The translations under genes were made by a program, and so were the position numbers. Below are positions 1 through 54,149 of a stretch of 64,000 nt of DNA, piece after piece. Under the pieces are notes generated by a model, which saw only the letters and a program-made list of their open reading frames with translations, had not been told where the DNA came from and did not search any database. The DNA lies in the NCBI RefSeq assembly GCF_003334305.1, contig NZ_QOWS01000021.1; one strand, written 5' to 3'. Each line of letters starts with the position of its first letter. The first letter of the stretch is position 1. This DNA comes from Escherichia coli. GTDB taxonomy: Bacteria; Pseudomonadota; Gammaproteobacteria; Enterobacterales; Enterobacteriaceae.

Positions 1-451
1 GAAGACGACTGCAAAATAAGAAGAGGAAACGCCGCAGAATTATTTTCAGGGATACGGCACATCGCTATTAATATTTTAACGAATGATAAGGTATTCAAGG
101 CAGGGTTAAGACGTAAGATGCGAAAAGCAGCCATGGACAGAAACTATCTCGCGTCAGTCCTTGCGGGGAGCGGGCTTTCGTAATCTTGCCCTGCCTGCTC
201 ACCTCCTCCAGGCACTTCCACTACATTATGACCTGCTCGGTGCCACCGCTCCTTTTCACTATGACGTTAACCTCCCCTCCTTGACACCATGCTTTTGTCT
301 ACATTCTACGCAAACGGCAACTTTTATAACCAGTGTAAAAATAACGTGCCGCAATAGTCATACCTATTAATGGTAAAAAGCTGTCACAATTCATAAAAAA
401 CCTTAATATACGCCACCCTAAACATAACCAGCGTTAATGTAAGGTTTTTGT

Positions 452-2689
452 GTGGACTGGCTTCTTGATGTTTTTGCAACCTGGCTCTACGGCTTAAAAG
501 TAATCGCGATAACGTTAGCGGTCATCATGTTCATCAGCGGGCTGGACGATTTTTTTATTGATGTCGTCTACTGGGTACGCCGCATTAAACGCAAGTTGAG
601 TGTTTATCGCCGCTACCCGCGAATGAGTTACCGCGAACTGTATAAACCAGATGAAAAACCGTTAGCGATTATGGTTCCGGCGTGGAATGAAACGGGCGTC
701 ATCGGCAATATGGCCGAGCTGGCGGCGACCACGCTCGACTACGAAAACTATCATATCTTTGTTGGCACCTACCCCAACGACCCCGATACTCAACGTGATG
801 TTGACGAAGTGTGCGCTCGCTTTCCGAACGTGCATAAGGTAGTCTGCGCGCGTCCTGGTCCCACCAGCAAAGCCGACTGTCTGAACAACGTGCTGGACGC
901 CATCACCCAGTTTGAACGTAGCGCCAATTTCGCTTTTGCTGGTTTTATTCTGCATGACGCCGAAGATGTGATTTCACCGATGGAATTGCGTCTGTTCAAC
1001 TATCTGGTCGAGCGTAAAGATCTGATTCAGATCCCGGTGTATCCGTTCGAACGCGAATGGACGCACTTCACCAGCATGACTTACATTGATGAGTTTTCAG
1101 AGCTGCATGGCAAAGATGTTCCGGTGCGTGAAGCCCTCGCCGGACAAGTGCCCAGCGCAGGCGTCGGCACCTGTTTCAGCCGCCGCGCCGTGACCGCTCT
1201 GTTAGCTGACGGTGACGGTATTGCTTTCGACGTGCAGAGTCTGACTGAAGATTACGACATTGGTTTCCGCCTGAAAGAGAAAGGTATGACGGAAATTTTT
1301 GTCCGTTTTCCGGTGGTGGACGAAGCCAAAGAACGCGAGCAGCGCAAATTTTTACAGCACGCACGGACGTCAAACATGATCTGCGTGCGCGAATATTTCC
1401 CCGATACCTTTTCGACTGCAGTTCGACAAAAATCTCGCTGGATCATCGGCATTGTTTTCCAGGGCTTTAAAACCCACAAATGGACCTCCAGCCTGACGCT
1501 GAACTACTTTCTCTGGCGCGACCGCAAAGGGGCAATCAGTAACTTTGTCAGCTTCCTCGCGATGCTGGTGATGCTCCAGCTTTTGCTGTTGCTGGCGTAT
1601 GAAAGTTTGTGGCCCAATGCCTGGCATTTCCTTTCTATTTTTAGCGGCAGCGCATGATTAATGACCCTGCTGTGGCTAAACTTTGGCTTGATGGTTAACC
1701 GCATCGTGCAGCGGGTGATTTTCGTCACTGGCTACTACGGTCTGACGCAGGGGCTGCTATCTGTCCTGCGTCTTTTCTGGGGCAACCTGATTAACTTCAT
1801 GGCCAACTGGCGCGCGCTAAAACAGGTACTTCAACACGGCGATCCACGTCGCGTCGCGTGGGATAAAACAACGCATGACTTCCCCAGCGTGACTGGCGAT
1901 ACCCGCTCGTTGCGCCCGTTAGGCCAAATTCTGCTGGAAAATCAGGTCATCACTGAAGAACAACTCGATACAGCACTGCGTAATCGCGTCGAAGGTCTAC
2001 GCCTGGGCGGTTCAATGCTGATGCAGGGGCTGATTAGCGCCGAGCAGCTGGCACAGGCGCTGGCAGAGCAAAACGGCGTGGCGTGGGAATCCATCGATGC
2101 CTGGCAGATCCCGTCCTCGCTGATTGCCGAAATGCCAGCCTCCGTAGCGCTGCATTATGCAGTACTGCCGCTGCGTCTGGAAAATGATGAGTTAATTGTC
2201 GGCAGTGAAGATGGTATTGACCCGGTTTCGCTGGCGGCCCTGACGCGTAAAGTCGGACGCAAAGTGCGTTACGTCATTGTTCTGCGGGGACAAATTGTCA
2301 CGGGGTTACGTCACTGGTATGCACGCCGACGCGGTCACGATCCGCGGGCAATGTTGTACAATGCGGTTCAGCATCAGTGGCTCACGGAACAGCAGACCGG
2401 TGAAATCTGGCGGCAATATGTGCCGCATCAGTTCCTGTTCGCCGAAATACTGACCACGCTCGGTCATATTAATCGTTCAGCAATTAACGTGTTGTTATTG
2501 CGCCATGAACGCAGTTCTCTGCCGCTCGGCAAGTTTTTGGTCACCGAAGGCGTTATCAGCCAGGAAACGTTGGATCGCGTCCTGACAATTCAACGCGAAT
2601 TACAAGTTTCGATGCAATCACTATTACTCAAAGCAGGTTTAAACACAGAACAGGTTGCGCAACTGGAGTCCGAAAATGAAGGAGAATAA
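452..2689 (+). pseudogene. nfrB: NfrB-like GT2 glycosyltransferase (phage N4 adsorption protein B) interrupted by an in-frame TGA at 1655-1657
   Basis: ORFs 452-1657 and 1661-2689 are in the same frame, separated only by a stop and one codon; the joined translation reads as one continuous NfrB-like protein. Confidence 0.7.
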
Positions 2690-5648
2690 CCTTAATCGCG
2701 TCATCGGATGGTCTGGTTTACTGCTGACGTCTTTATTGAGTACCAGCGCACTCGCAGACAATATCGGCACCAGCGCAGAAGAGCTGGGGCTGAGCGATTA
2801 TCGCCATTTTGTTATTTATCCCCGTCTCGATAAGGCGCTGAAGGCACAGAAAAATAACGACGAAGCAACCGCCATCCGCGAATTTGAATATATACACCAG
2901 CAGGTGCCGGATAATATTCCGCTGACTTTATACCTTGCGGAAGCCTATCGCCATTTTGGTCATGATGACCGGGCGCGGCTGTTGCTTGAGGATCAACTGA
3001 AACGTCACCCAGGAGATGCCCGACTTGAGCGCAGTCTGGCGGCTATTCCGGTTGAAGTGAAAAGCGTTACGACTGTTGAAGAACTGCTTGCCCAGCAAAA
3101 AGCGTGCGACGCTGCGCCGACCCTGCGTTGTCGCAGTGAAGTCGGGCAGAATGCCCTGCGGCTGGCACAATTACCTGTCGCCAGAGCGCAACTGAACGAT
3201 GCGACGTTTGCTGCATCGCCAGAAGGAAAAACGCTGCGAACCGATCTGCTGCAACGGGCAATCTACCTGAAACAATGGTCCCAGGCAGATACGCTATACA
3301 ATGAAGCACGCCAGCAGAACACATTAAGCGCGGCAGAACGCCGTCAGTGGTTTGACGTGCTTCTTGCCGGGCAGCTGGACGATCGGATCCTGGCACTGCA
3401 ATCACAGGGGATCTTCACCGATCCTCAGTCATATATTACTTACGCGACCGCGCTGGCTTATCGTGGCGAAAAAGCACGCCTCCAGCATTATCTCAATGAA
3501 AATAAGCCGCTGTTTACCACGGACGCACAAGAGAAAAGTTGGCTCTATCTGTTATCTAAATACAGCGCCAACCCCGTTCAGGCATTGGCGAATTATACGG
3601 TGCAGTTTGCCGATAACCGCCAGTATGTTGTTGGCGCGACGCTACCGGTGCTGTTAAAAGAAGGTCAGTACGACGCAGCGCAAAAACTGCTCGCCACCCT
3701 CCCCGCCAATGAAATGCTTGAGGAGCGTTATGCTGTCAGCGTGGCGACCCGTAACAAGGCTGAATCTCTGCGTCTGGCACGATTGCTGTATCAGCAAGAA
3801 CCGGCAAATCTTACCCGCCTGGATCAACTGACCTGGCAACTGATGCAGAACGAGCAGTCACGCGAAGCTGCCGATTTATTGCTGCAACGCTATCCTTTCC
3901 AGGGCGATGCGCGTGTCAGCCAGACTTTAATGGCGCGACTGGCGTCTCTGCTGGAAAGTCATCCTTACCTGGCAACGCCGGCGAAGGTGGCGATTTTATC
4001 GAAACCCTTACCGCTGGCGGAGCAACGTCAGTGGCAAAGTCAGTTGCCGGGTATTGCAGATAATTGCCCGGCAATAGTTCGCTTGCTGGGCGATATGTCG
4101 CCTTCCTACGATGCTGCCGCCTGGAACCGTCTGGCAAAGTGTTATCGGGACACGCTACCCGGTGTGGCGCTGTATGCATGGCTTCAGGCCGAACAACGAC
4201 AACCGAACGCCTGGCAACATCGTGCGGTAGCCTATCAGGCGTATCAGGTTGAGGACTACGCCACCGCACTGGCGGCCTGGCAGAAAATCAGTCTTCACGA
4301 CATGAGCAATGAGGATCTGCTTGCTGCTGCCAATACCGCCCAGGCGGCAGGAAATGGTGCAGCTCGCGATCGCTGGCTACAACAGGCAGAACAACGTGGA
4401 CTGGGAAACAATGCCCTCTACTGGTGGCTGCATGCGCAACGTTACATTCCTGGTCAGCCGGAACTCGCACTGAGCGATCTCACGCGCTCAATCAATATTG
4501 CGCCTTCTGCCAACGCTTACGTTGCGCGGGCGACAATTTATCGCCAACGTCATAATGTCCCGGCGGCGGTGAGTGATTTGCGCGCCGCGCTGGAACTGGA
4601 ACCGAATAATAGCAACATCCAGGCAGCGCTTGGTTACGCCTTGTGGGATAGCGGTGATATCGCACAGTCGCGGGAAATGCTCGAACAGGCGCATAAAGGG
4701 CTTCCGGACGATCCGGCACTGATCCGACAACTGGCCTACGTGAACCAGCGTCTGGATGACATGCCTGCGACGCAGCACTACGCCCGGCTGGTGATTGATG
4801 ACATTGATAATCAGGCGCTGATAACCCCACTGACCCCAGAGCAAAATCAGCAACGCTTCAATTTCCGCCGTTTGCATGAGGAGGTCGGTCGCCGCTGGAC
4901 GTTCAGTTTCGATTCTTCTATCGGCTTGCGTTCCGGGGCAATGAGCACCGCTAACAATAATGTCGGCGGCGCAGCGCCAGGGAAAAGCTATCGTAGCTAC
5001 GGGCAACTGGAAGCCGAGTACCGCATCGGACGCAATATGCTGCTGGAAGGCGACCTGCTCTCAGTTTATAGCCGCGTCTTTGCCGATACCGGAGAAAACG
5101 GGGTGATGATGCCGGTGAAAAATCCGATGTCCGGCACCGGTCTGCGCTGGAAGCCGCTGCGCGATCAGATCTTTTTCCTCGCCGTCGAACAGCAGTTGCC
5201 GCTGAACGGGCAAAATGGCGCATCCGATACCATGCTGCGCGCCAGCGCCTCATTCTTTAATGGCGGCAAATACAGCGACGAATGGCACCCGAACGGTTCA
5301 GGCTGGTTTGCCCAAAACCTGTACCTCGATGCGGCGCAATATATCCGCCAGGATATTCAGGCGTGGACGGCAGATTATCGCGTCAGCTGGCATCAGAAGG
5401 TAGCTAACGGACAGACTATTGAGCCTTACGCTCACGTTCAGGACAACGGCTATCGTGATAAAGGCACTCAGGGCGCGCAGCTTGGCGGAGTCGGGGTCCG
5501 CTGGAATATCTGGACCGGCGAGACGCACTACGACGCCTGGCCGCACAAAGTCAGTCTCGGCGTCGAGTATCAACATACCTTTAAGGCGATTAATCAACGT
5601 AACGGAGAGCGCAACAACGCGTTTCTCACCATTGGAGTGCACTGGTAA
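2676..5648 (+). CDS. nfrA: Outer membrane protein NfrA (phage N4 adsorption protein A), TPR-rich, 990 aa
   Basis: ORF 2655-5648; internal Met at codon 8 gives a signal-peptide-like N-terminus (MKENNLNRVIGWSGLLLTSLL); synteny with nfrB. Confidence 0.85.
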   Translation: MKENNLNRVIGWSGLLLTSLLSTSALADNIGTSAEELGLSDYRHFVIYPRLDKALKAQKNNDEATAIREFEYIHQQVPDNIPLTLYLAEAYRHFGHDDRARLLLEDQLKRHPGDARLERSLAAIPVEVKSVTTVEELLAQQKACDAAPTLRCRSEVGQNALRLAQLPVARAQLNDATFAASPEGKTLRTDLLQRAIYLKQWSQADTLYNEARQQNTLSAAERRQWFDVLLAGQLDDRILALQSQGIFTDPQSYITYATALAYRGEKARLQHYLNENKPLFTTDAQEKSWLYLLSKYSANPVQALANYTVQFADNRQYVVGATLPVLLKEGQYDAAQKLLATLPANEMLEERYAVSVATRNKAESLRLARLLYQQEPANLTRLDQLTWQLMQNEQSREAADLLLQRYPFQGDARVSQTLMARLASLLESHPYLATPAKVAILSKPLPLAEQRQWQSQLPGIADNCPAIVRLLGDMSPSYDAAAWNRLAKCYRDTLPGVALYAWLQAEQRQPNAWQHRAVAYQAYQVEDYATALAAWQKISLHDMSNEDLLAAANTAQAAGNGAARDRWLQQAEQRGLGNNALYWWLHAQRYIPGQPELALSDLTRSINIAPSANAYVARATIYRQRHNVPAAVSDLRAALELEPNNSNIQAALGYALWDSGDIAQSREMLEQAHKGLPDDPALIRQLAYVNQRLDDMPATQHYARLVIDDIDNQALITPLTPEQNQQRFNFRRLHEEVGRRWTFSFDSSIGLRSGAMSTANNNVGGAAPGKSYRSYGQLEAEYRIGRNMLLEGDLLSVYSRVFADTGENGVMMPVKNPMSGTGLRWKPLRDQIFFLAVEQQLPLNGQNGASDTMLRASASFFNGGKYSDEWHPNGSGWFAQNLYLDAAQYIRQDIQAWTADYRVSWHQKVANGQTIEPYAHVQDNGYRDKGTQGAQLGGVGVRWNIWTGETHYDAWPHKVSLGVEYQHTFKAINQRNGERNNAFLTIGVHW

Positions 5649-6539
5649 ATGCGTAAGTTCATTTTCGTATTGCTGACACTGCTTTTGGTCAGCCCTTTTT
5701 CCTTTGCGATGAAAGGTATTATCTGGCAACCACAAAACCGAGATAGTCAGGTTACCGATACCCAGTGGCAGGGGCTGATGAGTCAGTTACGTTTGCAAGG
5801 CTTCGATACCCTGGTTTTGCAATGGACCCGTTACGGCGATGCATTTACCCAGCCAGAACAGCGCACGTTATTGTTTAAGCGTGCCGCAGCTGCGCAACAG
5901 GCTGGCCTGAAGCTGATTGTCGGGCTGAACGCCGATCCGGAATTTTTTATGCACCAGAAACAGTCGTCCGCAGCGCTGGAAAGCTATCTTAATCGCCTGC
6001 TGGCTGCCGATCTCCAGCAAGCCAGATTATGGAGCGCCGCGCCTGGCATAACGCCGGATGGCTGGTACATCAGCGCGGAAATTGACGACCTGAACTGGCG
6101 CAGCGAAGCTGCCCATCAGCCTTTGCTAACATGGTTAAACAACGCGCAGCGGCTGATTAGCGATGTTTCAGCAAAACCGGTTTATATCAGTAGTTTTTTC
6201 GCCGGAAACATGTCGCCCGATGGCTATCGCCAACTGCTGGAACACGTTAAAGCAACCGGCGTTAATGTTTGGGTACAGGATGGCAGCGGCGTGGATAAAC
6301 TGACCGCTGAACAGCGTGAACGTTATCTACAAGCCAGCGCCGATTGCCAAAGTTCCGCCCCAGCAAGCGGCATTGTTTATGAACTTTTTGTCGCCGGCAA
6401 AGGCAAAACCTTTACAGCGAAACCGAAACCGGACGCAGAAATTGCCTCGCTGTTAGCGAAACGTTCCTCTTGCGGTAAAGACACTCTCTATTTCTCTCTG
6501 CGCTATTTGCCCGTCGCGCACGGCATTCTCGAGTATTAA
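5649..6539 (+). CDS. ybcH: YbcH-like secreted protein (DUF4434-like), 296 aa
   Basis: ORF with N-terminal signal peptide immediately after nfrA; matches recalled K-12 gene order nfrB-nfrA-ybcH. Confidence 0.75.
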   Translation: MRKFIFVLLTLLLVSPFSFAMKGIIWQPQNRDSQVTDTQWQGLMSQLRLQGFDTLVLQWTRYGDAFTQPEQRTLLFKRAAAAQQAGLKLIVGLNADPEFFMHQKQSSAALESYLNRLLAADLQQARLWSAAPGITPDGWYISAEIDDLNWRSEAAHQPLLTWLNNAQRLISDVSAKPVYISSFFAGNMSPDGYRQLLEHVKATGVNVWVQDGSGVDKLTAEQRERYLQASADCQSSAPASGIVYELFVAGKGKTFTAKPKPDAEIASLLAKRSSCGKDTLYFSLRYLPVAHGILEY

Positions 6540-13619: not shown

Positions 13620-14195
13620 CTACGGCAGTGCTGGCCATTCAATATCCTGTGCAGTTGACGTATCAACACGGTTCAGCAACACCCGATACTTTTTCCAGGC
13701 TTCCAGCAATGAGGTTTCTTCCTCCGTTGCGATTTCCAGATCTACAGCATCCTGAAGTGGCGCAATATGCTCACTGGCTACCTGCATCAGGCTGTTTTTT
13801 GTTTCTTCCGCCTCTCGGATCCGGAACAGTTTTTCTGCTTCTGCATCTTTCACCCAGGCTGTGCCGTTCCACTTCTGAAACTCCCCTTCCGGCGATAACC
13901 AGGTAACATTTTCCGGTAACGGACCGAGTTCAGAAATAAATAACGCGTCCCCTGACGCTACGTCATAAACCGTTTTACCCCGATGGTCTTCAACGAGATG
14001 CCACGATGCCTTATCACTGTTGAAAACAGCCACAAAGCCAGCAGGAATATCTGGTGGTGCAATATCGGTACTGTTTGCTGGCAGACCTGTATGAGGCGGA
14101 ATATATGCGTCACCTTCACCAATAAATTCATTAGTTCCGGCCAGCAGATTATAAATTTTTATGGTCCGTGGTTGTTCACTCATTCTGAATGCCAT
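13620..14195 (-). CDS. tfa: Tail fibre assembly protein Tfa, 191 aa
   Basis: Conserved Tfa C-terminal motif; immediately downstream of the side tail fibre gene. Confidence 0.85.
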
Positions 14196-17029
14196 TATGC
14201 AAGCCTCACAATATAGTTAAATGCGATGTTTTTGACGGTGTTTTCCGCGTTACCAGCAGCGTTAACGGTGATGGTGTGTCCATGTGAACCAATCGCAACG
14301 GAGTGCGTATGAGCACCAATACCGACAGTATGCGCGTGTGCACCTGCAGATGCTGCTGTGCCGGACAGTGAATGGCTATGATTACCATCTGTACTGGTAT
14401 TCGCTAACCACCCCGTAGACATACCTACTGAGCCTTGTACACCCCAGGTATTTTGACCTGAGCTTGTATAACCATATTGATAAGTATCTTTAAAAACACT
14501 GGGGTTAAATCGACGGCCATCTCTATGGCTGTGATTACCAGCTGCATTCGTGCTGCCACTTAAACTATGGGTATGCGCACCAGTGTTATTCGTGGATTTA
14601 GTGCCGTAATCAAACGACGATGTGGTTTTCGTCCCCAAATCCGTACTGGATGCGCTGGCGCTGTGGGTATGCGATTTAATGCCGTCCTGTTCCTGAGACA
14701 ATACGGCCCGACCACTGGCAGGTTTGCCCTTAATCGTCCAGCCACGCATATCAGGGATCACGCCTGACGGATAAGCGGCTGCAAGTTTCGGGTATGCAGA
14801 TTTGTCAAAAGTCTGCCCCTGCATCAGGGCATAGCCAGACGGAACGGTATCTGATGGCCACGGGATTGGTGCGCCAGGCGGATAAAACTGCTCTGATGGC
14901 GTATAGAGTGAATAAACTGTACCGTCCGTTAACCCTTCCGGCTTATTAGCAGAATATGCTGGTGACGTATGAATCGTCACGCTGGCATTACTGGTATAAT
15001 CCCATTGAATATTTACACCAGTCGCATAATTTCCGATTGCAACGTAAATATCGTAAGTATCACCAGATGTATTGACCCAGGCAAAATTTGTAAACCCTGT
15101 CGATGTGCGCTGCCATAAAGCACCAGTAATCCCCTTCGGATTACCATTACCTGCACGTAAAACAAGTTCAGATATACCTGCCTGTTGAGGTGACCCCACG
15201 TTAAATCCAGCGCCACCAATCAACGTAATTGAAACAACAGAACTCGCCTGTGGCATGGTTACCGTTGCTAATTTGAACCAACCAGCACCACCGCTGAATG
15301 ACATTGTTGTTGAGTTAAGCGTACCAATATCTTTCGGCGTCAGTGTTATATCCGCTGAAAGCGCCTTACCATTCACCTTACGGGCAGAAGGTACCCGACC
15401 ATTCGCATTGTCATTAGCTGCTTTCACTGCTTTCGGTGTCGCAGCAAGCGTTTCAGATGTGCTGTTGGTTGCACTACTGAGCTGGACAATTCCTTTTTGT
15501 GCTGTCGTAGCGTCCTGTGCGGTGTATTTCCCGTTAGCCAGGTCATACGCGGCCTTAACGGCTTTTGGCGTTGCCGCCTGTGACTCGGAAGTGCTGTTGG
15601 TCGCACTGCTGAGCTGTACTATCCCCTTTTTCGTCGTGCTCGCATCCTCAAGCGCCACGGCGGATGCAATATCCTCTGCCCGTTTTGCTGCTGTCTCGGC
15701 GCGCGTTGCCGCGGATTCCGCCGTACTTTTGCTCTGTGCTGCCGCTGCCGCACTGCCAGCAGCCTCTGTCGCCTTCGTGGATGCCGTCGTGGCGCTGCCC
15801 CTCGCTGCTGACGCCTGTCTGGTCGCCTCATCTTTTGAAGCAGACGCAGATGATGCCGATGACGCCGCCGAACTGGCGGACGATGCGGCAGCCGTTTTTG
15901 AGGATTCTGCGCTGGTTTCCGACGCTTTCGCGTTCGTTTCGGATGTCTTCGCTGCGGAAGCAGACCTCGCTGCTGCGCTGGCCTGTTCAGTGGCTTCGCC
16001 AGCCTTCGTTGTGGCTGTTGAAGCGGATGATGCGGCGCTTTCTGCCGATTTTCCGGCGGCGGTGGCACTGACTGCTGCCTCCTCTGCCTTAATGGACGCC
16101 TCACGGGCCGATGATGCAGCTGCTGTCTCAGAGTCTGCCGCAGCTGAGGCGCTCTGTTCCGCTGCCGTTTCAGAAGACCTGGCATTCGTCTCGGACGTTT
16201 TTGCCGCCTTCACGGAATTTCCTGCCGCCGTTGCCGAGGAGGCTGCACTGCTGGCGCTTGTGGAGGCGTTCGTTTCTGATGATTTTGCCGCCTCTTTGGA
16301 GGCCGCCGCATCTCTGGCTGAAGTGGCGGCTTCTGACGCTTTCGTCGTCGCAGTGGATGCAGAAGTGGCTGCTGATTTTTGTGACGCTGCAGCATTCGTT
16401 TCTGACGTTTTCGCCGCACCGGCACTGGTGGCCGCCGCGCTTTTTGAGGACTCTGCAGCGGCAGCACTTTTTGATGCTTCAGTGGCCTTTGTTGATGCCG
16501 TTCCTGCGCTGGAAGACGCCTCCTGAGCCGAAGTCGCGGCCTGTCCGGCTGACGTGCTGGCTGCACGCGCTGAGCCTGCAGCATCAGTCGCATGGGTTGC
16601 CGCCTCACGGGCAGATGTGCCGGCATCACTGGCTGACTTCTTCGCGGCTGCCGTGTTCTGTGCCACCGCGGACGCGTTACGCGTCACCTCTTCCACCATC
16701 AGTTCAAAACGGCGCAGAGCCTCCGGACGGGCATCATCCTCCGTCATGGCACCGAGAAAATCATTCAGCGTACCGGGTCGGGAATCTTCATACACGGTGA
16801 TGGTCCCGGCATGTGACGGCGGGAATCCTTCCACCAACAGAATAACGCTGTACTGACCGTACTCAACGTCCATGCTGTAACGCCCGGCTTCATCCGGATT
16901 TTCTGAGGCCAGCGTGTTCACCACCACCGTGGTGCTGTTACGTTTTGCTTTCAGCTGGATTGTGCAGTTCTGTACCGGTTTTCCTGTGCCGTCTTTCAGT
17001 ACACCTGAAATCTTTACTGCCATATTCAC
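14195..17029 (-). CDS. stf: Side tail fibre protein (Stf-like), 944 aa, with long Ala/Ser/Thr-rich repeats
   Basis: Repeated KTSETNA-type units, His-rich C-terminal tip (HTHS…HSHS…HAHT…HGHT); lies between lom and tfa. Confidence 0.85.
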
Positions 17030-37066: not shown

Positions 37067-37427
37067 ACATCCCGGTTTCTTCCACCATCGCACCGGAAAA
37101 GCGACTATGAGGGTAACCCTGCGTCTGTCAGCACAGTAAAACCCGGTGTGCATCGTTTTTGATTATTCCCGCACACTCACGCAGAAGGAATTCCCCGTCG
37201 GGCTACGGTCATGGTTAATGCGGGAATACGGCGACGATACAGCGCAGCTAAAAGGGTAATGGACAGATAGAGCGGTTTATTTCATTCCACAGGATTCTGA
37301 GTGCCCCCCCCTCCTCCAATAGGCTGAGCATCCACCTATATAGTTTTAATTTTCATCAATCCATTTAACTATCGTTTAATTGTTGTCACATAGGATTCTG
37401 CCGTTTTTAACAATGCAGGATAATAAG

Positions 37428-37752: not shown

Positions 37753-38214
37753 CTATCTGCACTGCTCATTAATATACTTCTGGGTTCCTTCCAGTTGTTT
37801 TTGCATAGTGATCAGCCTCTCTCTGAGGGTGAAATAATCCCGTTCAGCGGTGTCTGCCAGTCGGGGGGAGGCTGCATTATCCACGCCGGAGGCGGTGGTG
37901 GCTTCACGCACTGACTGACAGACTGCTTTGATGTGCAACCGACGACGACCAGCGGCAACATCATCACGCAGAGCATCATTTTCAGCTTTCGCATCAGCTA
38001 ACTCCTTCGTGTATTTTGCATCGAGCGCAGCAACATCACGCTGACGCATCTGCATGCCAGTAATTGCCGCGTTCGCCAGCTTCAGTTCTCTGGCATTTTT
38101 GTCGCGCTGGGCTTTGTAGGTAATGGCGTTATCACGGTAATGATTAACAGCCAATGACAGGCAGACGATGATGCAGATAACCAGAGCGGAGATAATCGCG
38201 GTTACTCTGCTCAT
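37753..38214 (-). CDS. Rz: Spanin inner-membrane subunit Rz, 153 aa
   Basis: Matches lambda/DLP12 Rz; follows the endolysin gene. Confidence 0.85.
37812..37994 (-). CDS. Rz1: Spanin outer-membrane lipoprotein Rz1, embedded in Rz in the +1 frame
   Basis: 60-aa ORF with a lipobox (VVGC) and proline-rich sequence, fully nested within Rz. Confidence 0.75.
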
Positions 38215-38708
38215 TGTTTCCCCCACAAACAGACTTCACGCTCAATCTCACGGCGAGTCATCAGTCCTTTCCATTGATTACCGCCAGCGTATGTCCAGCG
38301 CTGTAGCTGATCACATGCGCCTTTAATATCACCCTGGTTTATTTTGCGAAGAAGCGTCGATGTTCTGAAATTGCCAGCACCCACGTTGTAGACGAACGAG
38401 TAAAGAGCGCCGCGCGTTGTTTCCGGTATATCGACTTTGATGTACCGGTTAATTTGTCTGGCGACAGTTGCAAGGTCTTTATTCAGGAGGGCTTTGCACT
38501 CTGCTTCGGTATACGTTTTACCGGGAATGATGTCTTTTCCTGTATGCCCGTAACATACAGTCCATACACCAACTATGTCTTTGTAAGGATTATGTCTCAC
38601 ACCTTCCAGACCATCGTTACCACTTGGGCCAGTGATTAACACAGATGCTATAGCAATAGCCCCGCCACCAATAGCAGCAGCAACAGCTTTTCGTAATGAT
38701 GGAGGCAT
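38211..38708 (-). CDS. rrrD: SAR endolysin (phage-21-type lysozyme, RrrD-like), 165 aa
   Basis: N-terminal signal-anchor-release segment ([16 protein letters not shown]) plus T4-lysozyme-like domain; matches DLP12 RrrD as recalled. Confidence 0.85.
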
Positions 38709-54072: not shown

Positions 54073-54117
54073 TGGCGCGCCCTGCAGGATTCGAACCTGC
54101 GGCCCACGACTTAGAAG
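54073..54117. repeat. attR core (3' 45 nt of argU), identical to 7529-7573
   Basis: Direct repeat seen in sequence. Confidence 0.85.
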
Positions 54118-54149
54118 GTCGTTGCTCTATCCAACTGAGCTAAGGGCGC
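54073..54149 (-). tRNA. argU: tRNA-Arg (anticodon UCU), argU; prophage attachment site
   Basis: Reverse complement reads GCGCCCTTAGCTCAGTTGGATAGAGCAACGACCTTCTAAGTCGTGGGCCGCAGGTTCGAATCCTGCAGGGCGCGCCA (77 nt, cloverleaf-compatible, CCA end); coordinates approximate. Confidence 0.9.

Follow-up and report, generated by a model that had tools for sequence, protein, structure and literature searches.

The stretch of Escherichia coli DNA analysed here (64,000 nucleotides of contig NZ_QOWS01000021.1, assembly GCF_003334305.1; hereafter, the window) carries near its beginning the genes nfrB, nfrA and ybcH, and both the orthology and the synteny of the nfrB-nfrA-ybcH operon were found in it (Table 1). 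The start of nfrA overlaps the end of nfrB by 14 nt, an overlap that is also stated in PMC8669469. The window nfrB is orthologous to the K-12 gene (b0569) of NfrB, the c-di-GMP-activated GT2-MshEN synthase of the NGR glycan; it has the same operon context, the same domains and motifs, about 98-99% DNA identity and an identical proximal upstream region. The two genes differ at codon 402, which is TGA in the window and TGG in K-12. In the PGAP annotation of the RefSeq records most of these genes are given as "nrfB" (product "...glycosyltransferase NrfB"), a symbol that belongs to a gene of the nitrite reductase operon and should here read nfrB.

Table 1. Features at the nfrB locus, with their positions in the window and the basis of each assignment
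Feature	Position	Strand	Basis
3' end of the ISEc1 (ISAs1-family) transposase gene, edge of the VgrG-RHS-ISEc1 island	1..183	+	annotation
Proximal nfrB upstream region, 142 nt, identical to K-12	310..451	+	alignment
nfrB, 745 codons, pseudogene through one internal stop	452..2689	+	ORF comparison and "internal stop" in RefSeq A7
Codons 1-401: N-terminal membrane helix, GT2 domain, first linker helix (348-386), loop 387-400	452..1654	+	Pfam, alignment, AF2 model
Premature TGA, codon 402 (G-to-A at 1657; TGG in intact alleles)	1655..1657	+	
Codons 404-745: rest of second linker helix (to 429), helix 431-462, MshEN, C-terminal helical domain	1661..2689	+	ORF, Pfam, PDB matches, alignment, AF2 model
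nfrA, intact outer-membrane component	2676..5648	+	annotation; same protein accession as in strain 120899; own Shine-Dalgarno
ybcH, intact third operon gene, DUF4434	5649..6539	+	annotation

The upstream neighbour is also different: in this lineage (loci L001 and L005) nfrB is separated from cusS by a VgrG-DcrB-like-RHS-ISEc1 island, whereas in K-12 cusS is directly upstream. The RHS gene of the island is annotated as frameshifted in strain A7 (orangutan faeces, NZ_CP028767.1) and is intact in strain 120899.

Further downstream, at about 8000-54150, the window holds a complete-looking lambdoid prophage at tRNA-Arg(tct) (54073-54149); the corresponding site of K-12 is occupied by the defective DLP12. 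The prophage has the integrase, exo/bet/gam, the repressor region, replication genes, Q, lysis genes and the genes from terminase through tail fibres, and its cargo includes iss, a Lom-family gene and an ompC/nmpC-like porin gene. A full-length match to Rfam IS009 (RF02111, 226.7 bits) is found on the minus strand at 13654-13852, near a pinR/ydfK remnant at the prophage end. At several positions of the prophage the window departs from the RefSeq sequence of A7, so that it would be another assembly version or a sister isolate. The Rz and Rz1 genes (37753-38226 and 37812-37994, minus strand) are intact in the window and annotated as frameshifted or partial in RefSeq A7, where a G-run is longer by one G; a second run differs as C8 against C9, the two homopolymers being at 37304 and 37863. 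These differences suggest homopolymer errors in one genome copy, or a sister isolate. The tail-fibre gene (about 15450-15630) is about 134 nt shorter than in RefSeq A7, inside diverged internal repeats; in this region Tandem Repeats Finder gave no array.

The lesion in nfrB

A preliminary description of this DNA had claimed that nfrB is divided into two open reading frames of one frame by a TGA and a single codon, and the coordinates it gave are confirmed. The first frame (452-1657) starts with GTG, codes for 401 aa and terminates in the TGA; the codon TTA (1658-1660) follows; the second starts with ATG and codes for 342 aa. The sum, 401 + 1 + 1 + 342, is 745 codons, which is the length of intact NfrB. 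It had also been stated that a Trp codon belongs at the stop, and alignment to reference nfrB had been proposed as a check. The alignment was run and bears this out: codon 402 is TGG both in K-12 MG1655 and in strain 120899, and the comparison with the intact nfrB of the latter shows one mismatch in 2238 nt, at gene position 1206 (window 1657), where G is replaced by A and TGG by TGA (W402*).

This is a single-base lesion in a well-known gene and not a chance pattern. In intact orthologues codon 402 is a sense codon, and the uninterrupted frame of 745 codons that links both domains is absent from the window gene owing to the TGA. Judging from this comparison, we regard the window nfrB as a pseudogene of nfrB and not as a functional member of the family. 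Programmed recoding of UGA was considered and rejected: the UGA is not conserved, and the orthologues have TGG.

Occurrence of the stop codon in other genomes

A query of 501 nt spanning the site matched 5067 of the 5426 complete E. coli genomes, with 100% identity in strain A7 only. At least 80% of the query was covered in 5043 genomes, and A7 alone has A at the site. The same result was obtained with a 55-mer that carries the variant at position 28, so that any 28-base megablast seed necessarily includes it: W402*(TGA) is present in one complete genome out of 5426, again A7. The RefSeq record of A7 already lists this gene as a pseudogene ("internal stop"), and its nfrB is identical to that of the window. 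W402* is thus publicly marked as a pseudogene, and a lesion of this kind has already been reported for nfrB.

Draft genomes add to this. The exact 401-aa product together with the downstream 342-aa frame was found in at least 24 contigs of NCBI genome assemblies, and for the 401-aa product 25 of 40 blocks have contigs of at least 10 kb. In the draft assemblies the 401-aa product always precedes the 342-aa frame, which is followed by nfrA; the length of most of these contigs ranges from 10 kb to over 200 kb. An identical TGA allele is present in independent draft assemblies (loci L008, L010 and L013-L015), and the TGA carriers represent at least three genotypes.

The truncated protein

The GT2 domain (Pfam PF13632/PF13641) occupies residues 70-382 (window 659-1597). 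All GT2 signatures conserved in the alignment lie upstream of the stop: D169/D172 (DxD), T265-E266-D267 (TED) and Q326..R329-W330 (QxxRW). For MshEN (PF05157), Pfam gives residues 542-628; PDB matches of the MshEN/PilF/MshE type start at residue 486, so that the domain extends over about 486-628 (window 1907-2335). The c-di-GMP-binding residues L490/G491 are encoded, with the motif "RPLGQILL", in the downstream frame, past the stop.

An AlphaFold2 model built from 44 diverse homologues (mean pLDDT 91.4) contains a helix at 348-386, a loop at 387-400, helices at 401-429 and 431-462, a linker, and MshEN from about residue 490; the solved folds closest to it are BcsA (5ej1, 4p00) and hyaluronan synthases. 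Two linker membrane helices were described by Junkermeier and Hengge (PMC8669469). As modelled, W402 is the very start of the second of them, at the periplasmic junction of loop and helix.

Many homologues that lack MshEN (465-500 aa) align to residues 5-480 of the query. Past the stop, R421, R440, K472 and P478 are invariant, and R417, G430, A451, R454, A455, W470, D471, T473 and H475 are nearly so. Because the conserved core of the synthase reaches about residue 480, the 401-aa fragment would not be a full catalytic unit: by alignment, it keeps DxD, TED and QxxRW and is devoid of the second linker helix, the conserved core 417-478 and MshEN. The proposal that the N-terminal membrane and glycosyltransferase part is severed from the C-terminal domain therefore needs an amendment; the N-terminal helix and the GT2 domain are indeed within the 401 aa, but the break is not a clean separation of domains, the core up to about residue 480 being lost too.

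A natural break in reference NfrB or in its homologues, which had been named as an observation that would overturn the proposed lesion, was looked for in the complete genomes and in the homologue alignment, and none was found. As for a natural two-gene architecture with separate glycosyltransferase and MshEN genes, no homologue in the alignment ends or begins at the equivalent of residue 402, and conservation runs through 417-478.

Recurrence of nonsense alleles

Among ten draft loci with the 401-aa product, codon 402 is TGA in five and TAG in five. There are two upstream haplotypes, nine SNPs apart in window 30-290, and both types of stop are found on both. Since TGA and TAG occur at codon 402 on two haplotypes, the stop is to be counted, on the evidence of these alleles, as having arisen at least twice; the number of hits would be up to four, unless the flanks were shuffled by recombination. 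The TAG allele had no 100% match to the TAG 55-mer among the 5426 complete genomes. One W402*(TAG) lineage (loci L007 and L012) has an additional substitution, R512C, inside the MshEN region; this single observation hints at relaxed constraint after inactivation, with which it is compatible.

A look-up of the exact 401-aa product is biased in that it returns stops at codon 402 only, hence the controls at other codons. The products expected from stops at ten other Trp codons exist in public assemblies in all ten cases, with contig counts of 84 (W203), 65 (W330), 123 (W344), 130 (W355), 33 (W387), 77 (W391), 35 (W408), 21 (W443), 7 (W453) and 27 (W470), versus 23 for W402. Nine codons that are not one SNP away from a stop served as negative controls and gave 1, 0, 8, 8, 1, 18, 0, 2 and 0 contigs (range 0-18, median 1); the difference between the Trp codons and these controls has a Mann-Whitney p of 2e-4. 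By contig count W402 ranks ninth of the eleven Trp codons (range 7-130). It is tempting to view codon 402 as a hotspot or as a convergently targeted codon; however, W402* is unexceptional beside the ten Trp and nine control codons, and this proposal was rejected.

Other natural stops in nfrB are on record. Q376* (C1126T) is carried by 94 of the 5426 complete genomes, each with 100% identity to the 55-mer, and by more than 2000 collection blocks (among them loci L016, L018-L020 and L025), under the PGAP label "internal stop"; several carriers are named "405", which may mark one clinical clone. A natural W391* allele is also among them (locus L017; the 77 contigs listed for that codon). These alleles share with W402* the gene, the kind of lesion and the PGAP label, and differ from it in codon and lineage. 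Sellner et al. 2021 (PMC8669472) had already noted that in some E. coli strains nfrB or dgcJ is interrupted by a premature stop or an insertion element, or is affected by a deletion.

Neighbouring genes were compared at one codon per gene, and truncations were found in 25 blocks for nfrA W289*, 2 for ybcH W208*, 6 for ompT W223* and 35 for folD W220*. Nearly all of these hits are on short Logan contigs; for folD (locus L023), an essential gene, all are, and the contigs are below 10 kb. The raw counts of exact products are noisy, because even the essential folD gives matches on short Logan contigs; they include read-level noise or minority variants, and a contig-length filter is advisable. The nfrB stop alleles are set apart from those of the neighbours in that they are found in long, real assemblies. 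An enrichment of nonsense alleles in nfrB relative to the neighbouring genes is suggestive only, a hint: protein-haplotype diversity confounds the counts, and one codon per gene is too thin for a claim of enrichment.

Possible translation past the stop, and the downstream genes

The preliminary description had further proposed that the ATG three nucleotides after the stop could allow the C-terminal part to be made separately. The ATG is there, at 1661. Its Shine-Dalgarno energy is -2.0 kcal/mol, about the average of the 43 ATGs within nfrB, compared with -5.9 kcal/mol for nfrA and ybcH, and in a promoter scan relevant to this ATG and to nfrA promoter-like sites were not in excess. On these two grounds, a Shine-Dalgarno not above background and no surplus of promoter-like sites, independent initiation at this ATG was rejected. 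A restart there is possible but unsupported, and termination-reinitiation over the 3 nt that separate the stop from the ATG is likewise possible. Stop alleles at the other Trp codons are mostly without an adjacent ATG and often have higher counts than W402*. With regard to a possible Rho-dependent polarity on nfrA, a C/G scan for Rho loading had its maximum at 1.38 and indicated no distinctive site; nfrA has a ribosome-binding site of its own.

Discussion

The lesion, its reality, where it falls in NfrB and its repeated appearance among other strains are directly observed, and we consider it highly probable that a real G-to-A change at 1657 (W402*) has made nfrB a pseudogene, likely with the loss of NGR and with resistance to NGR-dependent phages. 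The course would be as follows. The transition turns the Trp402 codon into a stop. NfrB is a GT2-MshEN synthase of the inner membrane that is activated by c-di-GMP and makes the NGR exopolysaccharide; NGR is exported with NfrA and YbcH and is the initial receptor of phage N4 and of other NGR-dependent phages. Translation would cease at the periplasmic start of the second linker membrane helix; the product would retain the catalytic GT2 motifs but not the helix, the conserved part of the core (about 80 residues, 417-478) or the activating MshEN. Little or no NGR would be expected, and with it resistance to N4-like and other NGR-dependent phages.

The published mutants bear on this. In K-12, NfrB variants with a mutated glycosyltransferase active site do not complement the N4 plating defect (PMC8669469), and the MshEN mutation G491L abolishes N4 plating (PMC8669469, PMC8669472). 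A phage-selected nfrB p.W391* mutant (strain R189) is resistant, and sensitivity is restored by wild-type nfrB; this mutant additionally had an ompA deletion (PMC12548472). W391* and W402* both turn a Trp codon of the linker region into a stop and have M404 downstream, W391 being 11 codons upstream of W402; the distance from stop to ATG is 36 nt for W391* and 3 nt for W402*, and the former was selected in the laboratory together with the ompA deletion, whereas the latter is natural. Given the resistance of the W391* mutant and its return to sensitivity with wild-type nfrB, loss of function and the phage phenotype are likely, by analogy, in the strain studied here. The earlier suggestion of a phage-resistance allele is plausible for this strain. 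It may persist through selection by phages, because the polysaccharide is costly, or by drift.

UGA is the leakiest of the stop codons, and its read-through by near-cognate tRNA-Trp would give the wild-type residue. It is hence conceivable, though in our opinion improbable, that the gene is leaky or split and still functional, either through such read-through or through reinitiation at ATG 1661, with the parts 1-401 and 404-745 reassembling. The ATG follows 3 nt after the stop; in the model the break falls at the junction of loop 387-400 and helix 401-429, so that W402 and L403 alone would be missing, and split membrane proteins sometimes reassemble at junctions of this kind. The downstream frame, nfrA and ybcH are undamaged, and mild effects would agree with the survival of the allele in several lineages. 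However, the Shine-Dalgarno of ATG 1661 is average for an internal ATG; the W391* mutant, with the same restart codon downstream, is phage resistant and was rescued by wild-type nfrB, which, as far as the analogy holds, argues against a functional rescue by a separate C-terminal part; with stops at every other Trp codon tested, codon 402 gives no sign of special tolerance; and R512C in MshEN of one TAG lineage hints at relaxed constraint. The proposal of a separately made C-terminal product thus stands as far as the presence of the ATG is concerned and is weakened in the rest. A particular form of it, in which termination-reinitiation yields a two-polypeptide NfrB (1-401 and 404-745) that works as an NGR synthase or is regulated differently, appears to us very doubtful; if true, it would be a natural split of a c-di-GMP-controlled synthase and not a dead gene.

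The preliminary description also left room for a sequencing error, and little of that option survives. The window and RefSeq A7 differ at two homopolymer runs and in the length of one repeat, so at least one genome copy has errors of the long-read type, and the isolate might truly carry TGG. Yet the lesion is a substitution and not a homopolymer indel, the differences from RefSeq are confined to homopolymers and a repeat, and the stop is present in the window, in the RefSeq record and in the five independent drafts, in at least three genotypes. An assembly error at codon 402 is very unlikely because the pair of 401-aa and 342-aa frames recurs in independent draft assemblies, and we give an isolate with TGG scarcely more than a marginal chance. 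A gain of function, in which removal of MshEN would leave a constitutive, c-di-GMP-independent glycosyltransferase, as the relief of autoinhibition by c-di-GMP in BcsA (discussed in PMC8669472) and the position of every GT2 catalytic motif upstream of the stop might suggest, is the least credible of all, given that the membrane helix and core 417-478, kept in the MshEN-less homologues, are also lost and that W391* acts as a loss of function.

Concerning BcsA, it is the best structural match for the glycosyltransferase and membrane part and is likewise a processive GT2 synthase activated by c-di-GMP; however, it has PilZ and more membrane helices where NfrB has MshEN, and the identity is about 14%. 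The likeness should be read as an analogy of mechanism and not as family membership.

We return to the reading of W402* as a natural loss of nfrB, an ordinary one among the many such alleles of this gene in E. coli. The allele predicts that this strain lacks the NGR glycan and resists N4-like, Vequintavirinae and phi92-like phages; this would be useful for the choice of phages against this lineage, though no new principle is involved. Stops at all eleven Trp codons, a codon 402 that was hit twice or more and Q376*, fixed in a lineage that comprises 94 complete genomes, fit the published remark that nfrB is frequently inactivated, and in view of this pattern it would seem worthwhile to test across the species whether the phage-receptor pathway has been lost convergently.
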